From: Candidatus Poriferisocius sp.
Lineage (GTDB): Bacteria > Actinomycetota > Acidimicrobiia > Acidimicrobiales > Bin134
Direction of reading: 5' to 3'
Assembly: GCF_965208355.1 (NCBI RefSeq)
Contig: NZ_CBDBOM010000003.1
Coordinates: 3,262,058 to 3,326,057 of the forward strand
Length of the DNA: 64,000 nucleotides
The position numbers and the translations under genes were made by a program. Shown here in pieces: positions 982 through 16,301 of this stretch (positions are counted from its first letter, which is position 1; every line of letters begins with the position of its first letter). A model generated the notes under the pieces. That model did not search any database and was not told where the DNA came from. It saw nothing but the letters and a program-made list of their open reading frames with translations.

Positions 982-1008
982 GCTAGCCGCTCGGTCTAGG
1001 CGGCTGGC
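982..1008. terminator. Hairpin between converging genes
   Basis: gctagccgc-N9-gcggctggc stem (one G-U pair) at the two stop codons. Confidence 0.4.
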
Positions 1009-3827
1009 GGTACCGTTGGTAGCGGTGTGCCTCGGTCTGGGATAGACGTTGGGGGCACGCTGCAATGGTCAGTGGCCAGGTCGGCTGCGCTGTCGCCGAA
1101 GTCGAGGGTGCCGAGGGCGGCGCAGGCGGCGGCAAGGGCGGCGTGGTATTGGGGGTGGTCAGCGGTAAAGGCGGCTTCGAGGGCGTTTTGTCGGGCTACG
1201 GCCGCGCGGCGGGTGTGGGCGAGCGAGCAGATGTCGGCCACGCCGTCGCCGTTGCTGTCGAAGGCGTGGAGGCGGGCGCCGCCCAGGCTGAAGTCGATGC
1301 AGAAGTAGGGGCCGGTGATCACCGGGCCGGAAAAGAACCGGGCGGCCTTGGTGGGATCGAGCGGGTCGGGCACCGAGGGCAGCCGGCGTTCGTCGGCCCC
1401 TTTGGACCCGCAGGCGTCGGCCGCCAGCGATGTTGCGGTATCGCCGGGAAAATCCATAGGGGCGCCAATGCAAGTGCCCAGGGAGGGATCGGACTCGTCG
1501 ATATCGGGCGTCGCCGGTATATCGGGCGGCCCGTGGAGGGCGTTGCGGTACTCGTCGGGGTTGAGGGCGGCCAGGCGCTCCAATGCGTGCTGGCGGGCGA
1601 TGGTGGCCCGTCTGGTGGAGTTGAGGGCACAGATGTCGGCCACGTGATCGCCATTTGAGTCCATCGGGTAGGTCTCCGGTCCGCCCAGGCTGCGATTGGC
1701 GCAGTAGTCGGGACCTTCTATGAGGCCAGAGAAGTAGCCGTTGACCACGGTGACGATCACGGTATCGGTGTGGGCTTGCTGGCCGGGCACGTTGCCGACG
1801 GTGAGGGCGAAGACGAGCTTGACGCTGTTGAACCCGTCTAGCCGAGGAGCGTCAAAATAGGGGTACCGCCCGGATACGGACTTGAGCCGGCCGCCGGCAG
1901 TCGGGTGGTAGGTGCCGTCGGCATTGGGGAACCACTCCCCCAGCACAAAGCCCTCGGCGGCTTCGGCCTGGGTGATCTGGGGTCGATCCTCGGTGCGGGG
2001 ATGGGTTTCGATGCCGGTATAGACCCATTGGTAGGTCGCCGCGCCCAGGGCCTCTTCGCTGACCAACCCGGTGCTGATTCGGCCCTGCAAGCGGACGAAG
2101 CTGCCGGGGAAAACTCGCTGATCCGGACCGGGTACGGCCCTGAGGTCGTCATCGCCGTCGCGAATGGTGATCCGCACAATGTCAGTATCCGACACACCCC
2201 ACCGGTCGGTAACGGTCAATTGGATGTACACAACGTATTGAGAACCCCGGGTGACCTCGGGCAAGGTGAACTGGGCAGAACGGGTATCGGCGCCAGCCAG
2301 CGACAAGCGCGGCCCCCTGTAAGCAAGCGTCAACGGTCTGCCCGAGGCGTTGAGCACTTGCTCCCACCGATAGTCCAGCTCAAAGCCATCAGGGTCGAAT
2401 CCCAGGCCTTGCAGCACGACGACCCCGCTCGGCGGATCGGTGTCCGGGAAGCCACCGTTGTTGCCGTCGGGGGTATCGATATCTTCGGGGGCCGCGGCCT
2501 CCGGGGGCAGGTTGTCGGCCACCATCAGCTCCACTGATGTCGATCCTGTGTGGTCGGCAGGATCAGCCACCTCCACGGTGACTGTAAACGACTCGCCCTG
2601 CTGCACGCCTTCGGGAGCGGTGAACAATGCGGTGGTGCGCGATCCAGGTCGGTTGTCGTCGTCGGGCTCCACTCCTTGGCCGCTCCAGGTGTGCTCCAAC
2701 ACCCTGGTGCGGGCAGTTCCGTCGGCGGTACCCACCGCGATGAGGGTGATGCCGTCCTCAGCCACCTCGGGGGATATCACATAGCGGTTCTCGCCGGCGG
2801 CTTGGATTCCCACCAAACGGTCTTCAGCGGTCGACGGATTGGGGTCAGTGGCGGACAATTCGATTTCCACAGTGGGCGCGGCATGGGCGTCGCGAATCAC
2901 GATCATGACGATTTGCTGCGCCGACGCTCCGTGCTCGTCAGTCACCGTCAGTCGGTAATACAAGAAGTAGGTATCGGCAGTATCTCCGCGTACAAACGGC
3001 AGCCGACCCACCGTCTCCGACGTGATGCTGCCCACGACATCGGGATCCTCATCGGTGCTCAGCGTCCTTTGACCGTCGGTAGAGACGGGCAGCGTGGCGG
3101 TGACTGAGGCCACATCGCTGGCGTAGATGCGCTCCCAGCGAAATGCGCTGTCAGGCAACGGGCCGTCGGGATCGTAGCTGGCCGATCCGTCTACCACGAG
3201 GAGCGAGCCCTCGCGGATGTCCCACTCGAAATCCCGGTTGCCGCCCTCACCGGGGGCGTGGATAACTCCCTCCACGGTATAGCGCTCTTCATTCTCATCC
3301 ACCAGGCCATTGCCGTTGTCGTCGTAACCGGTCACCTGCTGGCCTCTCGGAGCCGGCTGCTTGGCCGACACGGTTATCACTGCGGTTGGGTCGTGATTGA
3401 CGCTGGCTGACACTGTCGTGCTTCGAGAGGCTTCGGGAAATCCATTGTCGGTCACCGTCAACCGAAACTCGATGGAATCGACATTCTCTCTCACCAGCGC
3501 CCTGGTAAAGATCACAAAGGTCGCCGTACGTCCGGCCGGAATTCCATTTGCCTCATCAGCAGGAGACGGGGTTATAGGGATTCCGGCAAGGGACCCGGTC
3601 ACCACCTCCCACTCGTACTTGACGATGTCGCCGTCAATATCGAAACTTCTCGAGCCGTCCAGCTCAACGGTGGTTGTCCCGGCATCCCGATCTGTCGTCA
3701 CACCACCAACTGTGGCAACCGCAACTGGCCGCACCTGGGTTTGTTCCTGCGCCACCGCCCCAAGCACAGCCCACCCCGACAGCGCCACCGACAGCGCCAC
3801 CATTGAAAATGCCATTCTGATGGGCAT
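996..3827 (-). CDS. Secreted PKD/Ig-like repeat surface protein, paralog 1
   Basis: Signal peptide ending AVA-Q; repeated DGSxSxDxDG...YxW...LTVTD motifs; two copies of the C-terminal GPxxC..SLGG..DSNGDxVADIC module. Confidence 0.8.
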   Translation of the reverse strand: MPIRMAFSMVALSVALSGWAVLGAVAQEQTQVRPVAVATVGGVTTDRDAGTTTVELDGSRSFDIDGDIVKYEWEVVTGSLAGIPITPSPADEANGIPAGRTATFVIFTRALVRENVDSIEFRLTVTDNGFPEASRSTTVSASVNHDPTAVITVSAKQPAPRGQQVTGYDDNGNGLVDENEERYTVEGVIHAPGEGGNRDFEWDIREGSLLVVDGSASYDPDGPLPDSAFRWERIYASDVASVTATLPVSTDGQRTLSTDEDPDVVGSITSETVGRLPFVRGDTADTYFLYYRLTVTDEHGASAQQIVMIVIRDAHAAPTVEIELSATDPNPSTAEDRLVGIQAAGENRYVISPEVAEDGITLIAVGTADGTARTRVLEHTWSGQGVEPDDDNRPGSRTTALFTAPEGVQQGESFTVTVEVADPADHTGSTSVELMVADNLPPEAAAPEDIDTPDGNNGGFPDTDPPSGVVVLQGLGFDPDGFELDYRWEQVLNASGRPLTLAYRGPRLSLAGADTRSAQFTLPEVTRGSQYVVYIQLTVTDRWGVSDTDIVRITIRDGDDDLRAVPGPDQRVFPGSFVRLQGRISTGLVSEEALGAATYQWVYTGIETHPRTEDRPQITQAEAAEGFVLGEWFPNADGTYHPTAGGRLKSVSGRYPYFDAPRLDGFNSVKLVFALTVGNVPGQQAHTDTVIVTVVNGYFSGLIEGPDYCANRSLGGPETYPMDSNGDHVADICALNSTRRATIARQHALERLAALNPDEYRNALHGPPDIPATPDIDESDPSLGTCIGAPMDFPGDTATSLAADACGSKGADERRLPSVPDPLDPTKAARFFSGPVITGPYFCIDFSLGGARLHAFDSNGDGVADICSLAHTRRAAVARQNALEAAFTADHPQYHAALAAACAALGTLDFGDSAADLATDHCSVPPTSIPDRGTPLPTVPPAA

Positions 3828-4114
3828 AATAGCCAGTCTTATGCTTGCAATCGCCCAGACGGGTGGACGCAGGGCGCCGGTGGCAGGAGATAGCCAACCT
3901 GGAAATGAAGTCAGGCGGTCTCGATGGGAAAATCTTTAGCAGTCGTTACACATTTCGTATAACACCCCCATATTATCGACAGATTGCTCTTACTTGAGCC
4001 AGAACCAACGAAAACGTCCTTGAACCAAGCGACCTCGAAAGCGGTGGACATAGCGAGACACGTCGTTGAAGATGCTTCTCTCAGTAACAAAACCACTAAC
4101 AACTGGGAGGCACC

Positions 4115-5296
4115 ATGGCAGCGAGGCAGAGGCTCACGGCGAAGTTCGTGGCCACAGTGAAAGAGCCGGGAGCCTACGGCGACGGAGGCCACGGCTCCCA
4201 CGGGCTGATCCTGCGAGTGCGGGAGGCCAAGGACGGGGGCGTGACCAAATCGTGGGTGCAACGGCTCATCATCAACGGCAGGCCCACCCACATGGGGCTG
4301 GGCCCCACATGGCTGGTTTCGCCCGCCGAGGCCCGCGAGGCGGCGTTGGACAACCACCGCACGGTCCGCAGGGGAGGCGACCCCCGGCGCGGCGCCGGCA
4401 TCCCCACCTTTGCCGAGGCCGTGGAGCAGGTAATCGCCATGCACTCCGCCGGCTGGAAGAACGGGGGAGGCACCGCCGAGGCATGGCGCACCCAGCTCGC
4501 CCGCCACGCCGCTCCCCTGTCTGACAAGAAGGTGGACAGGATCACCCCCGGCGACGTTCTCGGCGTGTTGGAACCCATCTGGCTCACCTTGCCGGAGATC
4601 GCCAGAAAACAGCGCCGGCGCATCAACTCGGTGATGAAGTGGGCCATCGCCCAGGGCTATCGCAAAGACAACCCGGCGGGCGACGCACTGGCCGCTGCCC
4701 TGCCGAGACAGAACGGCGGAACGCACCACCCCGCCATTCCCGCCGAAAGGGTGGCCGACGTGATTGCCGCCGTCTATGCGTCGGGCGCCTGGCAGGGAAC
4801 CAAGCTGGCCTTTGAGTTCCTGGCCCTCACGGCGTGTCGCTCCGGTGAGGTTCGGTTCGCAACGTGGGAAGAGATCGACCGGGAGTCTCGGGTTTGGACC
4901 ATCCCAGCCCACCGCACCAAAACCTTCACCGAGCACCGCGTGCCGCTGACCGACGCGGCGCTAAAGGTGCTGGACGAGGCTGAGAAGATCATCGACAACA
5001 GCGGCCTGATCTTCCCCTCACTCACCGGGCGGCCGCAAAACGACAGCACCCTGTCGAAGCTGTTGAGAGAGATGGGCGCGGGCATGGTTCCCCACGGACT
5101 GCGGAGCTCGTTCAGAAGCTGGGCGGCCGAGGCCACCGACTACCCGTGGGAGATCGCCGAGATGGCCCTGGGCCACACCGTGGGCACCAAGGTGGAGCGG
5201 GCCTACCTGAGAACTGATCTGTTTGAGAAGCGGGTTAGCCTGATGGAGGAATGGGCCGACTTTCTTGCCCGCATCCCAAGAAGGACACACCAGTAG
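4115..5296 (+). CDS. Tyrosine recombinase/integrase, P4-like, with N-terminal arm-binding domain
   Basis: Arm domain (YGDGG..GLILRV..KSWVQR..MGLG..VSPAEAREAA); catalytic R (ACRSGE), K (RTKT), HxxR (HGLRSS), H (ALGH), Y (RAYLR); RBS GGGAGG upstream. Confidence 0.93.
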   Translation: MAARQRLTAKFVATVKEPGAYGDGGHGSHGLILRVREAKDGGVTKSWVQRLIINGRPTHMGLGPTWLVSPAEAREAALDNHRTVRRGGDPRRGAGIPTFAEAVEQVIAMHSAGWKNGGGTAEAWRTQLARHAAPLSDKKVDRITPGDVLGVLEPIWLTLPEIARKQRRRINSVMKWAIAQGYRKDNPAGDALAAALPRQNGGTHHPAIPAERVADVIAAVYASGAWQGTKLAFEFLALTACRSGEVRFATWEEIDRESRVWTIPAHRTKTFTEHRVPLTDAALKVLDEAEKIIDNSGLIFPSLTGRPQNDSTLSKLLREMGAGMVPHGLRSSFRSWAAEATDYPWEIAEMALGHTVGTKVERAYLRTDLFEKRVSLMEEWADFLARIPRRTHQ

Positions 5297-5349
5297 TAAC
5301 AATTCGTATCTTGCATTCCGCTGACCAGCCCCTATAGACCCGATCTGGC

Positions 5350-5491
5350 TCCGGCGGCGGGAGTGCTGCTGGTCGTCGCAGGTCCTTGCTCGCGCTAGGG
5401 GCGCTGTTGGCGTTGGTTGCAAGCGTGCTGATCTGGGCCGCGCCCGGCTCCCAGGCGCAAACCCCGCCCAACATCCCCCCTGTCGCGATCG
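5350..5491 (+). repeat. Left outer inverted repeat, pairs with 13343-13484
   Basis: 142 bp with 6 mismatches by manual alignment; 5350-5396 is a perfect 47-bp match to the reverse complement of 13438-13484. Confidence 0.95.
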
Positions 5492-8400
5492 GTGTCCTCG
5501 GCGCTGCCACGCCGAACGACAACGGCACGGCCACCGACCCAACGGACGACTATGTGGTCCAGGCGTTGACCGGAGATCGAAGCTTCGATCCCGACGCGGC
5601 CAGCGGCGCCGCCAACAACGGGATCGCACAGTTCCGCTGGGAAGTGGTGACCGATACCTATAAGGACTGGCTGGCCATCACCAATCCCAACGCGGCAAAT
5701 GCATCGTTCATCGTTCCGAACGACGCATCCATCGCCCGCTACGGCCAGACCATTGAATTCCGGTTGACGGTGTGGGACGCCGATCCGCGGACATCTGTTG
5801 GCGCCCTGTCTGATTCCGACACGGTGACCTATAACTTCCGGGCCGCCGAGAGCCCCACCGCCGACATCACCATCACCGCCTTGTTGCCCAACCCCACCGC
5901 CGTTGAGAATTACGACGACGACGGCGACGGGATGGTCGATGAGGATGACGAGCAGTTCACTGTTGACGCCATCATCTCCCGCCCAGGTGAAGGCGACAAC
6001 TCTGACTACGAGTGGCACATCAAGGAAGGCGCCCTGCTGACGATTGACGGTTCCGGCAGTTCCGACCCCGACACCCGCCTGACTGATGCCAACTTCACCT
6101 GGACCCGTGTCTACGACAGCAGCGAAGACACCGGTGTCTCGACAAATGCTGGCGCTGTGGACGACACCTTGCCTGGTGGCACTGATGCTGAGGGCGCTGG
6201 CGCCACCGGCATGAAGATCAGCTCCCACACCCCGGCTGCCGACGGCACCCCCGAAGCCCTCAGCCCAACCAATCTCCGGATTGTGGCGCCGCTGTACAAC
6301 GATGACGGCTCCGGCCCGCAACCGTTCTTCAGCTACTACCGCTTGACGATTGACGACAACGGTGCCACCGATGGCGGTAACACCGACACCGCCGACGTGC
6401 TGATCGTCATCCACGACCAGCCCAACGATCCGGTGGCCGGCACCCGCGCAGCCCCAATCACCGTGACCGCCGACGGTCCCGACGCTGATACGGATGCGGA
6501 TGACGGTGCTGTTGTTGAAAGCAAGCTGGGACCCAACCGGTACTTGGTTGAGCCCAACCACACTGTGACCATCACGGCGATGCCATTTGACGCCGATATC
6601 GGTGCCGCTGGTGGCAGCACCGGCCTCCTTACCTCGTTTGAGGGTGCCAGGCCGACTGCGCAAGGTGCGACCAGTGCCACGCTGATGATTCCGCGAACCG
6701 CTCCTCAGGGAACTGAGTACGAGGTCAACATCACCATCACCGATAATCTCGGTACGCCGATGCGCAGCTCTACGACCACGGTGACCATCGTGGCCGTCCG
6801 CAACTCGGCCCCCGAGGCGGTTGCGCCGGAGACCATCACCGTTGGCGATGGTCCTAACGGTGGCACCATCGGTGCCTTCAACCTGCCTACTGGTCAGGTC
6901 ATGCTGCGGGGTATCGGGTTCGACGCCGACGGCGACGACCTCGCCTTCACCTGGACTGAGCTGGCCTACCCGCTTGTCGATCCTGAACCTGCAACAGGCC
7001 CTGCACTCAACACTGATGGAACCCCAGCTGCGATCAGGTTGCCGAGGAAGCCCTATCTGAGCATCGACAACGCTGATCAGGAGACGGCCTCCTTCTCGGT
7101 GCCCGAGGTGGACAGCGTGAATCTGCCCATCGCCCAGATCAATCATGACGGCGACGACGGAACTACCCCCGCAATCAACGGCTATGCGATCCCCGTATCG
7201 TTCACCGTCACCGACAGCTGGGGCGAGTCCACTACTGGCATGGTGATTGTCAACATCTACGACAACGAGCAATACGCCACGGTGGCCAACGCTGGTGCCA
7301 ACCAGCAGGTTTCCTCCGGTGGGTTTGTCCGCCTGAATGGCTCTGGCAGTAGTCCTTCAAACCCCACTACGCAGCAGCTGGACTATCTGTGGACCTACAC
7401 CGGTATCACCACCGACCCGGCGACCCAGGACCGTCCGGCCATAACTCCGCAGGAGATGCGGGAGGGTTATCGCGAGGGCGTGTGGTTCCCGTATGACGGG
7501 CTGACCGAGCCGACTGATGGCTCCGACCCCGCCACCACCACTGACGACGACGATACCGTTGCTGGAGACCAGGGCCGTGGCAGCTACCACCCGACTGCTG
7601 GTGGGGAGCTGAAGCAGCAGACCACCAGGTTCCCGTACTTCGATGCTCCGAGCCTGCACGGCTTCAACAGCATCAAGCTGCACTTCTCGCTGCTGGTCTT
7701 CGTCGATGCAAACGACAATGACACGGCCGACGACGGTGAAGAGCAGAACACCGCTCGGGTGACCATCACGGTGAGCGACGGCTACTACTCGGGCATTATC
7801 ACCGGTCCTGACTTCTGCACCGGGTACAGCCTGGGCGGTCCTCAGACCTTCGCCTTCGACAGCAATGGCGACGGCGTGGCCGACATCTGCTCGCTGAAGA
7901 CCACCCGCCGCGAGGCGGTGGCCACTCAGAACGCTTTGAACGAGCTGGCCGCTCTGTTCCCGGAGACGTTCAAGGATCACCTGCACGGCATGCCTGTGGA
8001 GGATGACGACACCACTGCTGACGTTGACGAGAGCGAGCAGTCGATCGCCAGTCAGTGCGCTTCGGCGCCCAAGAACCTGGGTGACTCCGATGCGGCTTTG
8101 AATGCTGATGCTTGCGGTCCGGCTGGAACGTTCGCCCGTCGGGTGTCGAGTCCGCCGGCGCCGGTTGATCCTTCGGTGCGGGATGTGTTCTTCTCGGGCA
8201 TCGTCTCCGATGAGAACTTCTGCACCAACCTGAGCCTGGGCGGTCAGCCGCTGTACGCCTTCGACAGCGATGGCGACGGCGTTGCCGACATCTGCTCGCT
8301 GGGCTACACCCGCCGTGAGGCCGTGGCCCGCCAGAACGCTCTGCAAGCGGGCTTCCTAGAGCACGATCAGTTTGCTGCGGCTCTGGCCAGGGCCTGCGCC

Positions 8401-8511
8401 GAGTTGGGCACCACCGACTTCGGTGACAGCGCTGGCCACCTGGCCGCTGACCGGTGCAGCAACCCCAGGCCGAGCACGCCTGGCACGGCACTGCCAACCG
8501 CTACTAACTAG
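5350..8511 (+). CDS. PKD/Ig-like repeat surface protein, paralog 2; headless (probably silent) cassette
   Basis: Close paralog of 10338-13517; frame reads SGGGSAAGRRRSLLAL from 5350 but has an in-frame TAG at 5335-5337; first possible start is TTG 5386, inside the signal peptide. Confidence 0.85.
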   Translation, partial: SGGGSAAGRRRSLLALGALLALVASVLIWAAPGSQAQTPPNIPPVAIGVLGAATPNDNGTATDPTDDYVVQALTGDRSFDPDAASGAANNGIAQFRWEVVTDTYKDWLAITNPNAANASFIVPNDASIARYGQTIEFRLTVWDADPRTSVGALSDSDTVTYNFRAAESPTADITITALLPNPTAVENYDDDGDGMVDEDDEQFTVDAIISRPGEGDNSDYEWHIKEGALLTIDGSGSSDPDTRLTDANFTWTRVYDSSEDTGVSTNAGAVDDTLPGGTDAEGAGATGMKISSHTPAADGTPEALSPTNLRIVAPLYNDDGSGPQPFFSYYRLTIDDNGATDGGNTDTADVLIVIHDQPNDPVAGTRAAPITVTADGPDADTDADDGAVVESKLGPNRYLVEPNHTVTITAMPFDADIGAAGGSTGLLTSFEGARPTAQGATSATLMIPRTAPQGTEYEVNITITDNLGTPMRSSTTTVTIVAVRNSAPEAVAPETITVGDGPNGGTIGAFNLPTGQVMLRGIGFDADGDDLAFTWTELAYPLVDPEPATGPALNTDGTPAAIRLPRKPYLSIDNADQETASFSVPEVDSVNLPIAQINHDGDDGTTPAINGYAIPVSFTVTDSWGESTTGMVIVNIYDNEQYATVANAGANQQVSSGGFVRLNGSGSSPSNPTTQQLDYLWTYTGITTDPATQDRPAITPQEMREGYREGVWFPYDGLTEPTDGSDPATTTDDDDTVAGDQGRGSYHPTAGGELKQQTTRFPYFDAPSLHGFNSIKLHFSLLVFVDANDNDTADDGEEQNTARVTITVSDGYYSGIITGPDFCTGYSLGGPQTFAFDSNGDGVADICSLKTTRREAVATQNALNELAALFPETFKDHLHGMPVEDDDTTADVDESEQSIASQCASAPKNLGDSDAALNADACGPAGTFARRVSSPPAPVDPSVRDVFFSGIVSDENFCTNLSLGGQPLYAFDSDGDGVADICSLGYTRREAVARQNALQAGFLEHDQFAAALARACAELGTTDFGDSAGHLAADRCSNPRPSTPGTALPTATN

Positions 8512-8521
8512 CAAACCGACC

Positions 8522-8592
8522 CTGGTTCGCCAGAACCAGTAGCACAAAACGAAGTGGCCCGGCCCCAGCGGCCGGGCCACTCCGCGTTTGTT
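8522..8592 (+). terminator. Double hairpin / intrinsic terminator after paralog 2
   Basis: ctggttc/gaaccag stem, then 12-bp stem agtggcccggcc/ggccgggccact followed by T-rich gtttgtt. Confidence 0.8.
8544..8587 (+). repeat. Left inner inverted repeat, pairs with 10265-10308
   Basis: 44-bp perfect match to the reverse complement of 10265-10308. Confidence 0.93.
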
Positions 8593-8667
8593 GGTATCGG
8601 TTGATGGGAAGGGTGCAAAGTGTGTCGCGCTCCAACCTTTAGCGGCGACTGGGCTCTTGGAGTGGGG

Positions 8668-8976
8668 TTAGCCGGCTTCGGCGGGAGAGTCGACGTCGAG
8701 CTTGGCCTCGATACGGGTTGGGCGTTAGCCGTGACCTTCGAACTGGGTCTCGACCGCCTTGAGTTCGACGGTGACGTTGGTTTCCAGGTCCTTGATAGCG
8801 CCGGTGACGTTGGATTCCAGGTCCTTGATGGCGCCGGTGACCTTGGTGTCCAGGTTGTTGACCGCCTGCTCGAGGCTGGCAAACCTGGTGGACAGGTCAC
8901 GCAAGTAGTGGAAGAGCATCCCGATTAGCCCTGCGCCTAGCACGCTGATGAGTGTGGTGGAAATGACAGTGTTCAC
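8668..8976 (-). pseudogene. Small membrane-anchored coiled-coil protein with probable premature stop
   Basis: N-terminal TM helix, 11-aa repeats VTGAIKDLExN; after TAA at 8725-8727 the frame continues RPTRIEAKLDVDSPAEAG to a second TAA at 8668-8670. Confidence 0.55.
8769..8855. repeat. 33-bp tandem repeat, ~2.6 copies
   Basis: Unit cggtgacgttggWttccaggtccttgatRgcgc at 8769, 8802 and partial at 8835. Confidence 0.9.
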
Positions 8977-9137
8977 TGACCTCTCCCTCTCTACATGGAG
9001 GGTTGCTAGGGGGGAAGCTTTGTACCAGGCTACCCCGGCCAGCTCCTGCCGACCACAACAGCCTAGGGCTAGGCGGCTTCAAGAGCTCCCGATTCGAGTC
9101 TGCGATTTCGAGCTCTTGCGTTGCTGGGATGGTGGGA

Positions 9138-10085
9138 CTACGACGGTGGATTCGCCAAGAGTTCTTGGATGGGAAGAAAGTTGTCAGGCCAGCCGTAGGG
9201 TTGGCAATCCTCGGGAATGCACACGACGTGTTCGCGCAAGACCCACTCGCTTGGTTCCTGCTGCATGATTTCTCCAACTGAATTCATATCTGACATCACA
9301 AAGGACTGAAGATCATCGCCGTCATAGGTCACATCTTCAACGAAGGCGACAAATCCATACGGCCTTACATCATCAGCATTCCATTGTGCGACGGACCCTG
9401 GCACAACGGGTCGACCGGGTTCATCTAAGAATTCCAAACCAGCATCAATTGCAGCGTCGTCCCAGTCGGCCGCGTTTCCCCATATCCTTCCAGATGGAAG
9501 TGAGAATCTATTGTGGAATTCGACCCCAGTGCCGGCATCGTCTGAATTGAGCCGCCAAGCAACATAAGACGTGGCAAAGCCCGCCAAGAAGCACCACTGA
9601 TCCGATCCTCGTGCGCCGAGGCAGTCGTCCATTTTGACTTCACGCCGATACTGCTCGAGGAGATCCGATGATTCTGACGGTTCCGGGTTCTCAGATGTGC
9701 CGGAATTTGCTTCAGTTGGTTCTGCCTCGGGTAGGGCCGTCCCTGAGGGGTCAAGGGAGGAGCCTGATGGGCTAGTCGGGGATAGCACTTCGGATTCGGG
9801 CTCCTCCGCCTCAGAGACTTCAGGGGTAGAAGCCGCCGGGGTTTCAGATGGCGGGTTTTCGGAGCTACTGCCTTGATTGATGGTTTGGGAGCACCCGACA
9901 ATGACGGTGAGCGTACCGATGTTGACGAGGGCTACGGTTACCCCCCCTATTGCAAGACTCAAAAGAACGGTCTTAACGGGGTGAGCTAGCACCCAGCGCC
10001 CCCACTCCTTCATCCAGCGCAAAAACCTGCTAACGACAGTTTCAGGGGCTTCCTGTTCTGGGGCTTCTTGCTCCTGTTCGTTCAT
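9138..10085 (-). CDS. Membrane-anchored CHAP-domain-like protein, catalytic residues substituted
   Basis: TM helix, Ser/Pro/Glu linker, then TSYVAWRL..WGNAADW..PGSVAQW..GFVAFVE..SDMN, matching the CHAP motif layout. Confidence 0.75.
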   Translation of the reverse strand: MNEQEQEAPEQEAPETVVSRFLRWMKEWGRWVLAHPVKTVLLSLAIGGVTVALVNIGTLTVIVGCSQTINQGSSSENPPSETPAASTPEVSEAEEPESEVLSPTSPSGSSLDPSGTALPEAEPTEANSGTSENPEPSESSDLLEQYRREVKMDDCLGARGSDQWCFLAGFATSYVAWRLNSDDAGTGVEFHNRFSLPSGRIWGNAADWDDAAIDAGLEFLDEPGRPVVPGSVAQWNADDVRPYGFVAFVEDVTYDGDDLQSFVMSDMNSVGEIMQQEPSEWVLREHVVCIPEDCQPYGWPDNFLPIQELLANPPS

Positions 10086-10264
10086 TGAACTCTGGCCCTA
10101 GGCGGATGGGCAGGTTTGATTCGAATCTAGCAGCGTCGGCGAGGTCGATGATAGGACTTATTACTTAAGCCCAATCTGGTTGGGATCGGGTGGAGGTTGC
10201 CGCATTCCAGAATGGAATGGATAGGCCCGCCGACCAGAACGGCCCAGAGCCAATCTGTGGGTAG

Positions 10265-10330
10265 ACGCGGAGTGGCCCGGCCGCTGGGGCCGGGCCACTT
10301 CGTTTTGTATTACTGGTTCAGATGAACCAG
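10265..10330 (-). terminator. Double hairpin after paralog 3; contains right inner inverted repeat
   Basis: Same 12-bp stem (10271-10299) and ctggttc/gaaccag stem as after paralog 2. Confidence 0.75.
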
Positions 10331-10337
10331 GGTCGGT

Positions 10338-13300
10338 TTAGCTGCTAGGGGCTTGTGGCAGTGCCGTTCCCGGCGTGCTCGGCCTGGGGTTGCTGCACCG
10401 GTCGGCGGCCAGGTGGCCAGCGCTGTCACCGAAGTCGGTGGTGCCCAACTCGGCGCAAGCCCGGGCCAGAGCCGCAGCAAACTGGTCGTGGTTCAAGAAG
10501 CCCGCTTGCAGAGCGTTCTGGCGGGCCACGGCCTCACGGCGGGTGTAGCCCAGCGAGCAGATGTCGGCCACGCCGTCGCCGTCGCTGTCGAAGGCGTACA
10601 GCGGCTGGCCGCCCAGGCTCAGGTTGGTGCAGAAGTTCTCATCGGAGACGATGCCCGAGAAGAACACATCCCGCACCGCAGGATCAACCGGCGCCGGCGG
10701 ACTCGACACCCGGCGGGCGAACGTTCCAGCCGGACCGCACGCATCAGCATTCAAAGCAGCATCAGAGTCACCCAAGTTCTTGGGCGCCGAAGCGCACTGG
10801 CTGGGAATGGCATCTTCAGCTTCGACCGGCGGAGTCGCAGTGTCGTCAGCTTCCACAGCATCCTTGCCATGCAGGTGATCCTTGAACGTGTCCGGGAACA
10901 GAGCGGCCAGCTCGTTCAAAGCGTTCTGAGTGGCCACAGCCTCGCGGCGGGTGGTCTTCAGCGAGCAGATGTCGGCCACGCCGTCGCCATTGCTGTCGAA
11001 GGCGAAGGTCTGCGGACCGCCCAGGCTGTACCCGGTACAGAAGTCCGGACCGGTGATAATGCCGGAGTAGTAGCCGTCGCTCACCGTGATGGTTACCCGA
11101 GCAGTGTTGGTCTGCTCTGTGCCACCCGTCGGGGTGAAGGACACCGTCAGCGAGAAGTGGAGCTTGATGCTGTTGAAGCCGTGCAGGCTCGGAGCATCGA
11201 AGTACGGGAACCTGGTGGTCGCCTGCTTCAACTCCCCACCAGCAGTCGGGTGGTAGGTGCCGATTGTCCCGTAGTCGGGGTAGCCGGCGACCTGGCTGCC
11301 AGCATCGACCTCGTCGGCGGTGCCGTCAGTGGTGGTGTCGGCGTTGCCGTCATAGGGGAACCACTCGCCCTCGACATAACCACCGGCAACCTCCTGCGGA
11401 GTCAGGGCCGGACGGTCCTGGGTGGCCGGATCGGTGGTGATCCCGGTGTAGGTCCACAGATAGCTCAGGCCAACAGCGGTGCCCGCCGAGCTGCTGCTAC
11501 CAGAGCCATTCAGGCGGACGAACCCACCGGAGGACACCTGCTGGTTGGCACCAGCGTTGGCCACCGTGCGGTACTGCTCGTTGTCGTAGACCGTGACGAC
11601 CACATCGTCAGTGCTGGACTGGCCCCAGCTATCGGTCACCGTGAATCGGATGGGGATCTGATAGGCGTTGACGTTGGGAGTATTGGTGTCATCGTCGTGG
11701 TCGATCGAGATGATCGGCAGATTCACGCTGTCCACCTCGGGCACCGAGAAGGAAGCCGTCTCCTGATCAGCGTTGTCGATGCTCAGGTAGGCCTTCCTCG
11801 GCAGCCTGATGTCCACAATTTCAGCTACTGACCCTGTGAGGCCGGTGTCGGCTGAGGTATCAAGAGCCGGAGGAGTGGCAGTGGTGAGCGGATAGGCCCG
11901 CTCAGTCCAGCTGAAGGTGAGGTCGTTGGCATCGGCATCGAACCCGATACCCCGCAGCATGACCTGGCCGGTGGGCAGATTGAAGGCACCGATGGTACCG
12001 CCGTTGGGACCATCGCCAACCGAGATGTTCACCGGAGCAACCGCCTCGGGGGCCGTGTTGCGCACGGCCACGATGGTCACCGTGGTGGTGCTGCTGCGCA
12101 TCGTACTATCGGTCACAGTGATGTTGACCTCGTACTCGGTTCCTTGAGGAGCAGTCCGAGGAACCATCAGCGTGGCCACAGTCGGTGCGGCAGGATCAGG
12201 AACCCGAACGCCATCGCCTGAGAAAGAGGTGATAAGACCGGTATTGCCGCCAGTGAGGCCGATGTCGGCATCAAACGGCATCGCGGTGATGGTCACCGTG
12301 TTGTTTGGCGCAACCAGGAACCGGTTGGCGCCCAAGCTGCTGCGCACCAAAGGAGTCGCGGTTCCGTCGACATCATACGTTGCCGTGATCGGTGCAGTGC
12401 GGGTGCCGGCCACCGGATCGTTGGGCTGGTCGTGGATGACGATCAGCACGTCGGCGGTGTCGGTGTTGCCACCAGCAGTGGCGCCGTTGTCGTCAATTGT
12501 CAAGCGGTAGTAGGCGTAGAACGGATTGGGGCCAGAGCCGTCGGTGTTCGCCAGTGCAATAACGGTCCTGCCAGCGTCGTTGTCAGCGTCAGCAACTGAT
12601 TCGCTACCTACGCTGGAGCTGATCTTCTTACCAGTAGCGGCATTGTCCGAACCGCCGGGGAGGGACGGATCGAGATCGGCGGCGTTGTTGGAGACACCGG
12701 TATCGGCGCTGCTGTCATAGACGCGGGACCAGGAGAACATGGCATCAGTCAGGCGTGGGGTGTCGGGGTCGGTGCTGCCGGAACCGTCAAACGTCAGCAG
12801 GGCGCCTTCCTTGATGTGCCACTCGTAGTCAGCATTGTCGCCCTCACCTGGCCGGGAGATGATGGCGTCAATCGTGTATTCCTCGTCGTCCTCGTCGATC
12901 ATCCCGTCACCGTCGTCGTCGTAGTTGGCCACGGCAGTGGGGTTCTTCAAGAACGCGGACACGGTGATGTCGGCGGTGGGGCTCTCGGCGGCCCGGAAGT
13001 TGTAGGTCACCGTGTCAGTATCGGACAGGGCGCCAACATCGGTCCGCGGGTTGGCATCCCACACCGTCAACCGGAACTCGATGGACTGACCGTAGCGAGC
13101 AATGGATGCCTCATTCGGAACGATGAAGGTGACATCCGTTGTCGAGCCGGAAACAGGGGTGAGGGCAAGCCAGTCCTTATAGGTGTCGGTCACCACTTCC
13201 CACTGATGGAGGTTGATCCCGTCGCCGCCCGTGTTGTCGGGATCAAAGCTGCGAGAACCCACCAACGTCTGGACCACGTAGTCGTCCGCCGTGCCAGCAG

Positions 13301-13517
13301 TGCCGTCAGGGCCGTTATTGGGAGTGGCATCGCCGAGCGTTGCGATCGCGACTGGGGGGAGGTTGGGCGGGGTTTGCGCCTGGGAGCCGGGCGCGGTCCA
13401 GATCAGCACGCTCGCTACCAACGCCAACAGCGCCCCGAGCGCGAGCAAGGACCTGCGACGACCAGCAGCACTCCCGCCGCCGGACCAAACCGAGTGAAGC
13501 ATCGTCATCATGGGCAA
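10338..13517 (-). CDS. PKD/Ig-like repeat surface (S-layer-like) protein, paralog 3; complete copy at the putative expression site
   Basis: Full signal peptide (…GRRRSLLALGALLALVASVLIWTAPGSQA-Q), AGAAAG RBS-like sequence, PKD-like repeats, duplicated C-terminal module; start may be TTG 13517 or ATG 13511/13508. Confidence 0.88.
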   Translation of the reverse strand: MPMMTMLHSVWSGGGSAAGRRRSLLALGALLALVASVLIWTAPGSQAQTPPNLPPVAIATLGDATPNNGPDGTAGTADDYVVQTLVGSRSFDPDNTGGDGINLHQWEVVTDTYKDWLALTPVSGSTTDVTFIVPNEASIARYGQSIEFRLTVWDANPRTDVGALSDTDTVTYNFRAAESPTADITVSAFLKNPTAVANYDDDGDGMIDEDDEEYTIDAIISRPGEGDNADYEWHIKEGALLTFDGSGSTDPDTPRLTDAMFSWSRVYDSSADTGVSNNAADLDPSLPGGSDNAATGKKISSSVGSESVADADNDAGRTVIALANTDGSGPNPFYAYYRLTIDDNGATAGGNTDTADVLIVIHDQPNDPVAGTRTAPITATYDVDGTATPLVRSSLGANRFLVAPNNTVTITAMPFDADIGLTGGNTGLITSFSGDGVRVPDPAAPTVATLMVPRTAPQGTEYEVNITVTDSTMRSSTTTVTIVAVRNTAPEAVAPVNISVGDGPNGGTIGAFNLPTGQVMLRGIGFDADANDLTFSWTERAYPLTTATPPALDTSADTGLTGSVAEIVDIRLPRKAYLSIDNADQETASFSVPEVDSVNLPIISIDHDDDTNTPNVNAYQIPIRFTVTDSWGQSSTDDVVVTVYDNEQYRTVANAGANQQVSSGGFVRLNGSGSSSSAGTAVGLSYLWTYTGITTDPATQDRPALTPQEVAGGYVEGEWFPYDGNADTTTDGTADEVDAGSQVAGYPDYGTIGTYHPTAGGELKQATTRFPYFDAPSLHGFNSIKLHFSLTVSFTPTGGTEQTNTARVTITVSDGYYSGIITGPDFCTGYSLGGPQTFAFDSNGDGVADICSLKTTRREAVATQNALNELAALFPDTFKDHLHGKDAVEADDTATPPVEAEDAIPSQCASAPKNLGDSDAALNADACGPAGTFARRVSSPPAPVDPAVRDVFFSGIVSDENFCTNLSLGGQPLYAFDSDGDGVADICSLGYTRREAVARQNALQAGFLNHDQFAAALARACAELGTTDFGDSAGHLAADRCSNPRPSTPGTALPQAPSS
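13343..13484 (-). repeat. Right outer inverted repeat, pairs with 5350-5491
   Basis: Reverse complement of 5350-5491 with 6 mismatches. Confidence 0.95.
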
Positions 13518-13559
13518 CTTTCTATCAGACCGGGTCAGTGGTTCAAAGTCTATAGGGTC

Positions 13560-13626
13560 GCCGACACCCTAATGGGACAGAACCGCTCGGTTCTGTGTCG
13601 GCGGACTGAGCCCGACCCCGGCTCAG
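13560..13626 (-). promoter_or_regulatory. Structured 5' leader of paralog 3
   Basis: Stems ctgagcc/ggctcag (13606-13626), acagaaccg/cggttctgt (13577-13596), gccgacac/gtgtcggc (13560-13602). Confidence 0.5.
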
Positions 13627-13636
13627 CACGGGGAAT

Positions 13637-13665
13637 AGTTTGTCAGGTCTTGGGGGAAGTTTCAA
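13637..13665 (-). promoter_or_regulatory. Candidate sigma70-type promoter
   Basis: Minus strand TTGAAA-17 bp-CAAACT with TG extended -10, just upstream of the first leader hairpin. Confidence 0.4.
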
Positions 13666-13742
13666 ACACTCCCAGACAATCTTCCGACCATTTCTTGCAG
13701 GAAGGAACAGGTCAGCCCGCTAGAGAATCGCCAAAACCGCCC

Positions 13743-16301
13743 TCAGGCGCAGGCATCTCGGCTCAAGTGTCGGGGGTCGTCGCCGAAGTCGGCGGTGCCG
13801 AGTTCTCTACAGGCCAGGGCCAGGGCATTGTCAAAGGACGCTCGGGGGCTTGCGAAGACATTGAGGGCGTGCTGGCGGGCGACGGCCTCACGGCGGGTGT
13901 AGGGCAGCACGCAGGTGTCGGCCACGCCGTCGGCGTTGCTGTCGAAGGGGTAGAGGCGGGCGCCGCCCAGGCTCAGGTTGGTGCAGAAGTCGGGGCCGTC
14001 GACCAGCGCGCCGGAGAAGAACGTGTCAGCCAGGTGAGGGGGCACCGGGGGTGGCGGGCCGGCCACCCGGGAGGTGGCGCAGGCGTCTTGGGCCAGGTTG
14101 GCGGGATCGTCGCCGAAGTCGCCGGCGATGCGGTTGCAGGCCAAAAGCACCTGGGTGGTGAACCGGGTGTTGTTGAGCGAGGCCAGCGTGGCGAGCGCGT
14201 TTTGGCGGGCGATGGCCTCGCGGCGGGTGGTGCGCAAAGAGCAGGTGTCGGCCACGCCGTCGCGGTCGCTGTCGAAGGCGTAGGTGGGGGGGCCGCCCAG
14301 GCTCAGGTTGGTGCAGAAGTCGGGGCCGTTGATGACCCCGGAGAAGAACCGGCCGGCCACGGTGATGGTCACGGTGTCGGAGTCGGTGGCCCGGGTGCTG
14401 TCTCGCACGGTGAGGGTGAAGGTGAACGACACGCTGGTGTAGCTGCCGATGTCGGCGGGGGCGTCGAAGTAGGGAACCGCGCTGTTGGCCCCGAACAAGA
14501 TGTTGGGATAGACGTTGCTGGCGGGCAGAAAGCCCGCCAGGGCCAGGCGGTCGAACTGGGTGAGCGGGCGCTCGGATTGGGGCGGAGTGGTTTCGAATCC
14601 GGTGTAGGTCCAGCGCCAGGAGGTGATCCGGTTGGTGCGGTTGGGATCGATGCTGCCGGAGCCGTCGAGGCGGACCTGGGTGCCGGGCTCCACGCTCTGG
14701 TTGGGGCCGGCGTCGGCTTCGGGGGGATTGATGTTGCCCAGCACGATGACCGTGACGGTGTCGGTGTCGTTGGCGCCCCACTGGTCGATCACGATGAAGC
14801 CGAGGTACACCTCGAGCTCGCTGAAGCCGGCGACGTCGGGGGGTGTGAACGACACGGTGGCGGTGTCGGCGTTCATCAGCTCGAGGGTGGGCTCATCGAG
14901 GGGATCGCCGTTGGCGTCGGCCTGGAACCAGCGATAGCGCAGCGGATCGCCGTCGGCGTCGGAGCCGGTGCCGGTGAGGATCACCAGGCCTTGGCGGTTG
15001 GTGCCGCCCCGGGGGCCGTCGTCCACCACGGCATCGGCGGGGGCGGTGGCCCGGGGGCGGTTGTTGTCGGCCACGGTGAACACGACCACGTCTCGCCCGA
15101 TGCGGTTGGTGGGATCGGACACGGTAACGGTCACTACGTAGGTTTGGCCCTGGGGGGCGTTGGTGGGGGCTGAGAACGTGGCCCGGGAGGTGGGGCCGTG
15201 GGTGGCGTTGGAGGAGGCGGGGTTGACGCCGGTGCCCACCCAAGTGTGGACCAGCCTTGAGGCGTCGCCGGTGTCGCGGTCGGTGGCTCGGGCGATGAGC
15301 TCCACGGTGGCGCCGGGGCGGACCACGTAGTTGAGGGTGGGGTTGTCGGGATTGAGGGCGTTGGCGTCTTGGACCGGCTGGCGGGCGTTGTAGAGCTCGA
15401 GTTCGACCTCGGGGGCGAAGGGCTCGTCGACCACGTTGATGCGCACCGAGGCCACCACCTGCTGGCTGGTGCCGCTGGTGACGGTGAGGGTGTAGATGAC
15501 GACGGCGGTTTGGCCCTGGCGCAGGTTGGCGGGAAACAGCAGGGTGACGTCTTGGTCGTCGCGGTCTTCGAAGGGGACGCGGAACTCGTTGTAGGAGGGG
15601 ACGGCCGAGAGCCGGGTCCATTGGAATCGCAGCGTGCTGTTGGCGGTGGCGCCGACGCCGGAGCGGCCGACGCCGTTGAGGGTGACGCGGGCGCCCTCTC
15701 GCACCGTCCACTCGTCGTCGTCGTTGCCGCCTTGGCCGGGGCGGCGGACCACGCCGGGGACGGTGTAGCGCTCGTCGTCTTCGATGATGTGGTTGTTGTT
15801 GGCGTCTATGGGATTGGGGTCGGCGATGAAGGCGGTGAGGCCGATGGCCGCAGTGGGCGGGCCCTCGAAGTTGAGGGTGACGGTGTCGGTGCCGGTTGCG
15901 CCCTCGGGATCGGTGACGGTGAGGCGGAACTGGATGGTGTAGCCGTATCGGGCCGCTTCGGAGGGCGACGGGGATATGAACGTGGCGGTGCGGCCCCGGG
16001 GGAAGCCGGTGGGGGTGATGGCGAGCCAGGAATAGTTGGAGGTGATGACTTCCCAGCGGTAGTCGAGCACTTGGTTAGCGCCGTCGATGTCGAAGCTGCG
16101 GGTGGCGTCGAGGGTGACGAAGCCCGAGCCGAGGGCGACGGCGCGATCGGCGCCCGCTCGGGCGATTGGGGGGGAGTTCTGGGTTTGGGCCGCGGCGGTG
16201 GAGGCGGGGGCCAGAGCGAGGACGGCGGCTAACAGAGTGGCGGCGAGAACGGTGCTGAGGGCGCGCTTGTTAAGGGCGGGGAGTGGGCGGGCGATGGCCA
16301 T
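13743..16301 (-). CDS. Secreted PKD/Ig-like repeat surface protein, paralog 4
   Basis: Signal peptide ending AAA-Q; PxAxAGxD..LDxxxSxDxD PKD-like repeats; duplicated C-terminal GPDFCTNLSLGG module. Confidence 0.82.
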   Translation of the reverse strand: MAIARPLPALNKRALSTVLAATLLAAVLALAPASTAAAQTQNSPPIARAGADRAVALGSGFVTLDATRSFDIDGANQVLDYRWEVITSNYSWLAITPTGFPRGRTATFISPSPSEAARYGYTIQFRLTVTDPEGATGTDTVTLNFEGPPTAAIGLTAFIADPNPIDANNNHIIEDDERYTVPGVVRRPGQGGNDDDEWTVREGARVTLNGVGRSGVGATANSTLRFQWTRLSAVPSYNEFRVPFEDRDDQDVTLLFPANLRQGQTAVVIYTLTVTSGTSQQVVASVRINVVDEPFAPEVELELYNARQPVQDANALNPDNPTLNYVVRPGATVELIARATDRDTGDASRLVHTWVGTGVNPASSNATHGPTSRATFSAPTNAPQGQTYVVTVTVSDPTNRIGRDVVVFTVADNNRPRATAPADAVVDDGPRGGTNRQGLVILTGTGSDADGDPLRYRWFQADANGDPLDEPTLELMNADTATVSFTPPDVAGFSELEVYLGFIVIDQWGANDTDTVTVIVLGNINPPEADAGPNQSVEPGTQVRLDGSGSIDPNRTNRITSWRWTYTGFETTPPQSERPLTQFDRLALAGFLPASNVYPNILFGANSAVPYFDAPADIGSYTSVSFTFTLTVRDSTRATDSDTVTITVAGRFFSGVINGPDFCTNLSLGGPPTYAFDSDRDGVADTCSLRTTRREAIARQNALATLASLNNTRFTTQVLLACNRIAGDFGDDPANLAQDACATSRVAGPPPPVPPHLADTFFSGALVDGPDFCTNLSLGGARLYPFDSNADGVADTCVLPYTRREAVARQHALNVFASPRASFDNALALACRELGTADFGDDPRHLSRDACA

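Follow-up and report, generated by a model that had tools for sequence, protein, structure and literature searches.

A probable programmed inversion that chooses between two secreted PKD-repeat protein variants in Candidatus Poriferisocius

Introduction

The switching of surface-protein cassettes by DNA inversion is textbook knowledge for a few pathogens and gut commensals. Here, a locus with this kind of geometry is described in a stretch of 64,000 nucleotides (the window; contig NZ_CBDBOM010000003.1, positions 3,262,058 to 3,326,057) from the genome of Candidatus Poriferisocius sp., an uncultured member of the Acidimicrobiia. Between positions 5350 and 13517 of the window two large paralogous genes face each other, only one of them has a complete 5' end, and a tyrosine integrase gene lies beside the other one. 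The locus is interpreted, with a probability of about 0.82, as a programmed gene-altering inversion that determines which version of a secreted PKD-repeat protein, out of two, the cell produces.

The closest likeness is found in the vsa locus of Mycoplasma pulmonis. According to the available portions of the report on this system (PMC2268961), an expression site carrying the promoter, the ribosome-binding site (RBS) and the 5' coding part is joined by site-specific inversion to one of several silent genes that are devoid of these elements, and the gene of the tyrosine recombinase HvsR is located nearby. With this plan of expression site, silent genes and nearby tyrosine recombinase, vsa is closer to our locus than the slpA/slpB pair of Lactobacillus acidophilus. 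Nevertheless, the constant part comprises the first 714 nucleotides in vsa and only 9-11 codons here, and the vsa products are lipoproteins instead of PKD-repeat proteins of about 1050 amino acids. Moreover, our site falls within the n-region of a signal peptide, a P4-type integrase of 393 amino acids with an arm-binding domain takes the place of HvsR, and the host belongs to the uncultured Acidimicrobiia and has two cassettes, with up to three in its relatives.

Regarding slpA/slpB, the available extract of PMC3666127 describes facing paralogs with a single active promoter, where inversion of the segment activates the silent gene; 0.3% of the chromosomes were flipped in culture and one orientation dominates. 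A preliminary description of the window had drawn this comparison, which is apt in these three respects (facing paralogs, one active promoter, segment inversion). However, the proteins are unrelated, no S-layer domain was found here, and a dedicated tyrosine integrase adjoins our locus. A Din-type site has reportedly been proposed for the slp inversion. The gene-altering programmed inversions of Milman, Yelin and Kishony (2023) share with the present pair the asymmetry of a full gene that faces a start-less partner, and the main text of that work, as far as available, reports inverted repeats in coding sequence, a nearby recombinase and heterogeneity in long-read data (PMC9881135). Neither the protein family nor the lineage is mentioned in that part of the main text, and the supplementary tables might list related loci. 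The preliminary description knew of no such system in this lineage, and no programmed inversion or phase variation in Acidimicrobiia, or in sponge or coral symbionts, was found in the literature searched; the published Poriferisocius literature that was found concerned a coral microbiome.

Shufflons and the inversion systems of tail fibres and pilins (R64 Rci/pilV, Mu Gin, Moraxella Piv) also join a constant 5' part to alternative 3' parts. Those systems swap the C-terminal parts of small proteins by means of another recombinase family, whereas here almost the entire protein of 1050 amino acids would be exchanged; a further likeness to shufflons is that the relatives with three cassettes would need nested inversions. 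On the other hand, the P4-type integrases of genomic islands have the identical domain set (Arm-DNA-bind_3, Phage_int_M, Phage_integrase), but there is no tRNA target here, the sites are inverted and not direct, the site lies 53 nucleotides past the 3' end of the gene, and orthologs with at least 71% identity form a group that travels with the cassettes. From vsa, slpA/slpB and the catalogued gene-altering inversions our locus departs in four points: its protein family, a very short constant part, a P4-type integrase that has an arm-binding domain, and its lineage.

Results and Discussion

Layout of the locus and its two facing cassettes

The genome under study comprises 3,719,227 bp and is called G000 in the comparisons, where other G-numbers designate the compared genomes and L-numbers their loci. 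Two open reading frames (ORFs) converge in the window, the left one at 5386-8511 on the plus strand (1041 amino acids counted from a TTG, in a frame that is open since 5338) and the right one at 10338-13517 on the minus strand (1059 amino acids). Their products are 79% identical by tblastn and 76% by blastp. The parts of this arrangement are the following:

5350-8511, plus strand: silent cassette L, 1053 codons and a stop, lacking any start codon ahead of the signal-peptide core
10338-13484, minus strand: cassette R, currently joined to the expression site (from the ORF and the alignment)
8549-8585, no strand assigned: hairpin after cassette L, a G+C-rich palindrome, preceded by an A-run and followed by a T-rich tail
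10267-10303, no strand assigned: inverted copy of the terminator hairpin, 3' of cassette R (repeat search)
13485-13517, minus strand: constant first 11 codons (LPMMTMLHSVW from TTG 13517), preceded by a GAAAG RBS-like sequence
13518-13665, minus strand: promoter-like sequence and 5' leader, with TTGAAA at 13665-13660, a spacer of 17 nucleotides and CAAACT at 13642-13637

The whole genes are duplicated, a point that the preliminary description had passed over, including their terminator hairpins, which fall within an inverted repeat of 94% identity (8048-8587 and 10265-10804); the hairpin at 8549-8585 looks like a bidirectional terminator. An in-frame TAG (5335-5337) precedes the left copy, and none of the 16 codons of 5338-5385 is ATG, GTG or TTG. 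The right copy alone carries the first 11 codons, the RBS-like sequence, the leader and the promoter-like sequence. These were the observations from which the preliminary description started (two convergent paralogs of about 1050 amino acids, a left copy that is start-less and otherwise intact in frame, and a single complete 5' end), and at the sequence level all of them were confirmed. The G+C content of 3600-13600 is about 0.54-0.66, versus about 0.67-0.73 to its right.

An 18-bp core at the boundary of homology

The 5' coding ends of the cassettes form an inverted repeat of 167 nucleotides with 92% identity (5350-5516 and 13318-13484). The pairwise alignment placed six mismatches within 5350-5491 and left the outer 47 bp (5350-5396) perfect, which agrees with the 142-bp repeat reported before, and the abrupt stop of homology was also found again: the boundary is sharp at T5350 and T13484, and the 60 nucleotides upstream of both copies are 25% identical, with patchy similarity only (CCGCTGACCAG..TATAG versus CCACTGACCCGG..GATAG). 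Two copies of a short core begin at this boundary, as determined by genome search and cassette comparison:

5350-5367, plus strand: core site TCCGGCGGCGGGAGTGCT, silent-side copy
13467-13484, minus strand: core site TCCGGCGGCGGGAGTGCT, expression-site copy

These are the only two exact copies of the 18-mer in the genome, a fact likewise absent from the preliminary description, and they are mutually inverted. All other matches resembling it carry two or three mismatches and have no signal peptide after them. The codons TCC GGC GGC GGG AGT GCT stand in equal phase in L and R and, therefore, an exchange would fuse them in frame.

The core was analyzed in 11 comparisons of an expressed with a silent cassette, taken from 10 genomes. 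The base where identity sets in is the T of TCCGG in 10 of them and lies one position later in the remaining one (G016/b). Upstream of the core start at most 0-3 extra bases match, and the identity of the 60 upstream nucleotides (17-32%) is that of random sequence. Among the comparisons with the flank available, the uninterrupted match is limited to the 18-bp core in G007, G016/dist and G051. Furthermore, the paired cores within one genome are identical in 10 of the 11 comparisons, and four core variants exist between genomes, with GGCGGCG, GGCGGTG, GACGGTG or GGCGAAG as their central part. At the sites of tyrosine recombinases, the overlap regions of the two partners must match. Hence, the fixed boundary, the short common core and the paired change of the partners speak for site-specific and not homologous recombination, and most likely the exchange occurs within the 18-bp core rather than at an arbitrary point of the 47-bp repeat.

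Three fragmented assemblies (G003, G019 and G044) contain six exact cores, each of them no more than about 350 nucleotides away from a contig end, and one G003 contig ends precisely at the last base of the core. This pattern is suggestive of switching, since a repeat of 18 bp alone should not stop the G003 contig.

A tyrosine integrase gene beside the silent cassette

The gene that stops 53 nucleotides ahead of the left repeat and cassette L was overlooked in the preliminary description. Together with its surroundings, it contributes these features:

4115-5296, plus strand: tyrosine recombinase of the P4-integrase type, 393 amino acids, presumptive invertase (Pfam, NCBIfam and motifs)
5297-5349, plus strand: spacer of 53 nucleotides from the integrase stop to the core, containing CTGACCAG (5321-5328) and the in-frame TAG
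3947-3976, plus strand: promoter-like site about 140 nucleotides upstream of the integrase start, TACACA-18-TATTAT (weak consensus match)

The domains Arm-DNA-bind_3, Phage_int_M and Phage_integrase were each detected above the Pfam cut-off (60.4 bits versus a cut-off of 27.1 for PF00589), and NCBIfam also returned an integrase-domain match. The translation, read by eye, contains the motifs TACRSGE, HRTKT, HGLR, GH and ERAYLR, which we take to be the carriers of the catalytic R, K, H-x-x-R, H and Y. A sequence search of the PDB gave a nuclear magnetic resonance structure of the central domain as the sole match. The octamer CTGACCAG of the spacer is also present in the spacers of G007, G016, G046 and G003. 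Regarding the promoter-like site, a sigma-70-type scan of the region yielded two sites against 1.7 expected in shuffled sequence, thus the match at 3947-3976 is no evidence of function.

Four paralogous integrases with 46-57% identity are encoded elsewhere in the genome, two of them adjoining tRNA genes. By contrast with these two, the integrase of the locus has no tRNA gene at a distance of 1.5 kb or less, and the window contains none at all. A simple island integration, with a tRNA target and direct repeats, was considered and rejected because the window has no tRNA and the two cores, the only ones, are inverted. No serine recombinase was detected among the seven ORFs of 996-16301 scanned with Pfam, a set without the ORFs below 130 amino acids other than 8725-8976. 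Judging by its domains and its position, the integrase is most likely the catalyst of the inversion.

The module is kept across the genus

All 24 genomes sampled from the genus encode the protein family, which was found in none of the 16 that represent other families in the order. A 25-mer covering the constant codons and the start of the core occurs in 23 of 40 genomes of the genus (once in 20 and twice in three), and an orthologous integrase with 71-94% identity in 10 of the 40, in addition to a partial copy in G019. The next-best integrases after this orthologous group do not exceed 57% identity.

Six contiguous assemblies were mapped, namely G000, G007, G016, G018, G051 and G046. In all six the integrase is situated 8-16 kb from the expression site and is co-directional with a start-less cassette just downstream, and this silent cassette is convergent with the expressed gene. 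In five of them (G000, G007, G016, G051 and G046) the core follows the integrase stop after 50-53 nucleotides. In G018 (L024:4700-6320) a 3' fragment of the integrase stands right at the silent core and the intact gene is 1.6 kb upstream, which suggests an insertion or a partial duplication. Three cassettes are present in G016 and G046. The architecture with its adjacent recombinase is therefore kept across the genus, although the cassettes of these six assemblies are quite different.

No orthologous integrase was found in G047 (L085) and G054 (L086), where two tandem genes each have a complete expression-site 5' end; the two genes are 100% identical in G047 and 72% in G054. As a separate observation, contig C34 of G019 starts (L083:1-500) with the first 104 or so codons of the integrase ortholog, which continue straight into a core and cassette. 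Either the contig end is chimeric, or the integrase was destroyed there by an aberrant recombination.

Both orientations in a congener

The assembly of G046 is a single contig of 3,812,606 bp, with an invertible segment of 15.9 kb whose cores are at 7526 and 23445. Its positions 3793463-3801808 repeat the first 8345 bases in direct orientation with 99.88% identity, and all nine mismatches are located beyond the core. The part of the contig that begins at 3800986 and reaches its end matches the start bases 23449 down to 11830 in reverse, with 99.97-99.98% identity over 11.6 kb, no mismatch and two or three single gaps. At this end junction the expression-site flank lies upstream of the core, and the 900 nucleotides downstream are those of the integrase-side cassette with no mismatches; the junction differs from the cassette expressed at the start of the contig at +184, +295 and seven other positions. 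Since the end fuses the expression site to the integrase-side cassette, both orientations occur in one assembly. The simplest reading is that of a circular chromosome with an untrimmed assembly overlap, whose reads would hold both orientations of the segment. Hence, the expectation that both orientations exist is supported at the assembly level in this congener, but the flipped state was not seen for the genome under study.

The locus is represented in six sequencing runs, with no RNA run among them. The Logan contigs of four runs were fragmented over 4600-14300, bridged neither core and contained no strand-changing joint, being uninformative on inversion. A perfect repeat of 47 bp probably breaks contigs of this type anyway, assuming that we judge their construction correctly. 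One run labelled as sponge metagenome contained only 0.06 of the words and gives no evidence of habitat. The flipped-junction pattern was found in no metagenome record of a collection that seems to lack these communities, and the core pattern in 29 records, only one of which (L051) belongs to this system. Contig C1 (20,640 bp) was considered as a haplotig in the alternative orientation and rejected, as it duplicates C3:745-765 kb with 82-88% identity; probably a piece of some related strain or species was binned in. The ends of contigs C2 and C3 do not overlap. The segment interiors of G000 and of G051, its nearest relative, differ too much for the orientation of their genes to be compared.

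Selection on the silent cassettes

Between L and R the synonymous divergence (dS) is 0.45 and the nonsynonymous one (dN) 0.15, giving a dN/dS of 0.33, and all length differences are in frame. By these measures both copies are under purifying selection. Amino acid identity falls to 55-65% in the alignment blocks 61-120, 241-480, 541-600 and 721-780 and reaches 78-98% in the cysteine-rich C-terminal 240 residues.

The silent cassettes of the integrase-bearing contiguous assemblies are open over their full length in all eight cases. Two silent cassettes come from genomes in which no orthologous integrase was found: that of G023 is frameshifted (734 + 429 codons) and has a degenerate core, and that of G004 has only 514 codons. 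The G004 assembly is fragmented (91% complete), and its integrase is therefore to be taken as not found, not as absent. Over the variable 400 residues, the silent cassette of G018 is 88% identical to the expressed one of G023, and the expressed cassette of G018 is 79% identical to the silent one of G004. Orthologous cassettes occupy different states, silent or expressed, in different species.

The expression site and its structured leader

The expression site was aligned in 23 loci. Invariant in all of them are TGTTTGAAA, which contains the TTGAAA of 13665-13660, and the spacer of 17 nucleotides, and in the CAAACT-type hexamer positions 2, 4 and 6 do not vary. The stretch from TCTGATAGAAAG through the constant codons up to the core is almost unchanged, and the DNA of 13485-13517 is invariant in nearly all of the aligned leaders. 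Within the latter, the conserved ATG at 13508 is a likelier candidate for the true start than TTG 13517. A simple sigma-70 scan did not flag the TTGAAA/CAAACT promoter, so the call at 13665-13637 derives from conservation.

The leader, of about 110-120 nucleotides, appears to form three covarying hairpins and an outer helix. RNAalifold predicted 33 pairs, 12 of which show compensatory changes. A structure drawn by hand, made up of three hairpins plus an enclosing and a distal helix, reaches 92.8% pairing and has 13 pairs with two-sided changes, versus 6.0 +/- 1.6 in shuffled alignments (none of 500 reached 13) and at most seven when slid, with the reservation that it was derived from the same 23 sequences that score it. 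Conservation and covariation thus strengthen the promoter-like sequence and structured leader that had been ascribed to the right copy. The leader gave no match in Rfam, is present once in the genome under study and may be an undescribed cis-regulatory RNA. It was also observed that the invariant stretch around the RBS and the first codons could pair with itself.

Proposed mechanism and alternative explanations

In the mechanism proposed here, a single expression site outside the segment (13485-13665, minus strand) provides the promoter-like sequence, the structured leader, the RBS-like sequence and the first 9-11 codons, and in the current state it is fused to cassette R via the core at 13467-13484. 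The integrase would bind and synapse the two inverted cores and exchange strands inside them, and the 8.1-kb segment 5350-13484 would flip, together with the interior genes of a CHAP-domain protein and of an 83-amino-acid repeat protein. As a result, the 9-11 constant codons would be joined in frame to cassette L and cassette R would be parked behind the integrase gene, in a step that should be reversible. The preliminary idea, in which an inversion swaps the cassette at a single expression site for a silent one in frame, is backed by the conserved module, the core boundary, G046 and the selection on the cassettes. The flip that would fuse L in frame was retained from it, and the generic crossover in the 47-bp repeat was replaced by an exchange that the integrase would catalyse, most likely within the core.

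Several observations weigh against this mechanism. The normal role of arm-binding P4-type integrases is the integration and excision of islands, and neither arm sites nor an accessory factor were identified for the one encoded here. The integrase is 1.1-1.6 kb away from the core in G018 and G005, and the copy of G005 matches residues 96-388 only and has an internal stop. Of the 23 genomes with the expression-site sequence, 13 yielded no orthologous integrase and yet keep the site equally well; its conservation therefore stems from the gene family and not from the switch. The contrast between intact and decayed silent cassettes amounts to eight versus two cases among related genomes. The evidence from G046 is at the assembly level, with a true inverted segmental duplication of 20 kb as the alternative, which is unlikely. 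Finally, no read or contig shows the flipped state for the genome under study, so the view that its switch is still active draws on homology with the relatives.

The in-frame fusion could also be brought about by RecA-dependent homologous recombination or by gene conversion of the similar 5' ends, with the integrase as a bystander. The sap cassettes of Campylobacter fetus are switched in a RecA-dependent manner through a long conserved 5' block that is common to all cassettes. The repeat of 142-167 bp, with its 47 perfect bases, could support such an exchange here, which is a further point against an integrase-driven inversion, and homogenisation is suggested by the runs of identity downstream of the core (up to 184 bp in G046, at least 109-139 bp in G005 and G019). 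However, the partners have only 18 uninterrupted bases in common in G007, G016/dist and G051, homology starts at the same base in all comparisons except G016/b, the integrase ortholog holds its distance of 50-53 nucleotides from the core in five genomes, and the cassettes are decayed in the genomes where no integrase was found. This explanation is accordingly considered improbable. The same holds for a static arrangement, in which the left copy would be the 5'-truncated relic of the landing of an integrase-bearing mobile element and no switching would occur at present. The usual association of P4-type integrases with islands, the tRNA genes beside two of the four paralogs in the genome, the lower G+C content of 3600-13600 than of its right flank and the missing flipped state agree with a relic, but a tRNA in the window and a direct repeat of the core do not exist, the core having two inverted copies only. 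Moreover, L keeps 1053 in-frame codons with a dN/dS of 0.33 relative to the expressed copy, the layout recurs with quite different cassettes in the six contiguous assemblies, and both orientations are seen in G046, all of which makes a mere relic hard to believe.

It could be argued, too, that the pair are plain paralogs expressed together, with L carried on the integrase transcript and its translation beginning at TTG 5386. No terminator-like site separates the integrase stop from cassette L, and this in-frame TTG has an AGG 6-8 nucleotides upstream, so that some independent translation of L on read-through may be conceded against a strict switch. Nevertheless, the identical TTG and upstream bases also occur inside the expressed copy, and the context is therefore no dedicated start. 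A product from 5386 would have lost the charged RRR of its signal peptide. In G007 the silent copy has its first in-frame start still deeper in the hydrophobic core, and in all genomes examined the reading frame of the silent copies stays open as far back as the core and across it. Simultaneous expression is thus very improbable, and an inversion catalysed by the integrase at the core is the interpretation followed below.

Possible biological meaning

The pay-off of the inversion would presumably be the variation of an exposed protein against host recognition or phages. The genus name marks these Acidimicrobiia as sponge associates. If the interpretation is true, the locus would offer a testable handle on what these uncultured symbionts display to hosts and phages. 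It would also add a recombinase type that is seldom tied to inversion, with a short and defined site of 18 bp for assays. Going one step further, we lean, with moderate confidence, towards the view that a P4-family island integrase, together with its arm-binding domain, has been domesticated across a clade of uncultured Acidimicrobiia as the dedicated invertase of a shufflon-like antigenic variation with two or three cassettes, in which nearly all of a major secreted PKD-repeat protein is swapped. In that case, even presumed mutualists of animal hosts without adaptive immunity would face a selection for antigenic variation like that acting on pathogens, coming from host recognition or from phages. 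In methodological terms, G046 illustrates that the untrimmed overlaps of long-read metagenome-assembled genomes can expose such switches.

The protein family and neighbouring genes

The cassette proteins matched K319L-like PKD domains in Pfam, with weak matches to REJ and Sde0182_C, and had no match in NCBIfam. Neither database revealed an S-layer or SLH-type domain, and the label of S-layer-like protein used in the preliminary description was abandoned. Their N-terminus looks like a signal peptide of the Sec or the Tat type, with RRR, then a hydrophobic core, then SQA ahead of Q. These features support a secreted PKD-repeat protein as the cassette product. The C-terminal 309 residues contain two cysteine-rich repeats with DSDGDGVAD loops, where EF-hand and FG-GAP appeared below threshold only, and the comparison of this part with the ESM Atlas gave no usable match.

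Two further genes are located between the cassettes:

8725-8976, minus strand: small protein of 83 amino acids with a hydrophobic N-terminus and 11-residue repeats (TGAIKDLE-type)
9138-10085, minus strand: CHAP-domain protein of 315 amino acids, with a domain of the peptidoglycan-hydrolase type (Pfam, NCBIfam)

The CHAP-domain protein also has a membrane segment and a low-complexity linker, and no homolog of it was found in the segments of the relatives searched. Relatives of the 83-amino-acid protein were detected by tblastn in the cassette loci of G016, G018, G046, G051 and G004.

Apart from L and R, the genome encodes three paralogs of the family, two of which flank the switch at 996-3827 (minus strand) and 13743-16301. 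The closest DNA match (76%) of the paralog at 996-3827 lies inside the invertible segment of G051 (L076:10995-13838), therefore the cluster has been rearranged between species. The right flank is ordinary chromosome, with the gene of an Lhr-type large helicase at 16614-20930 (minus strand) followed by an operon for a branched-chain amino-acid ABC (ATP-binding cassette) transporter and a P450 gene.

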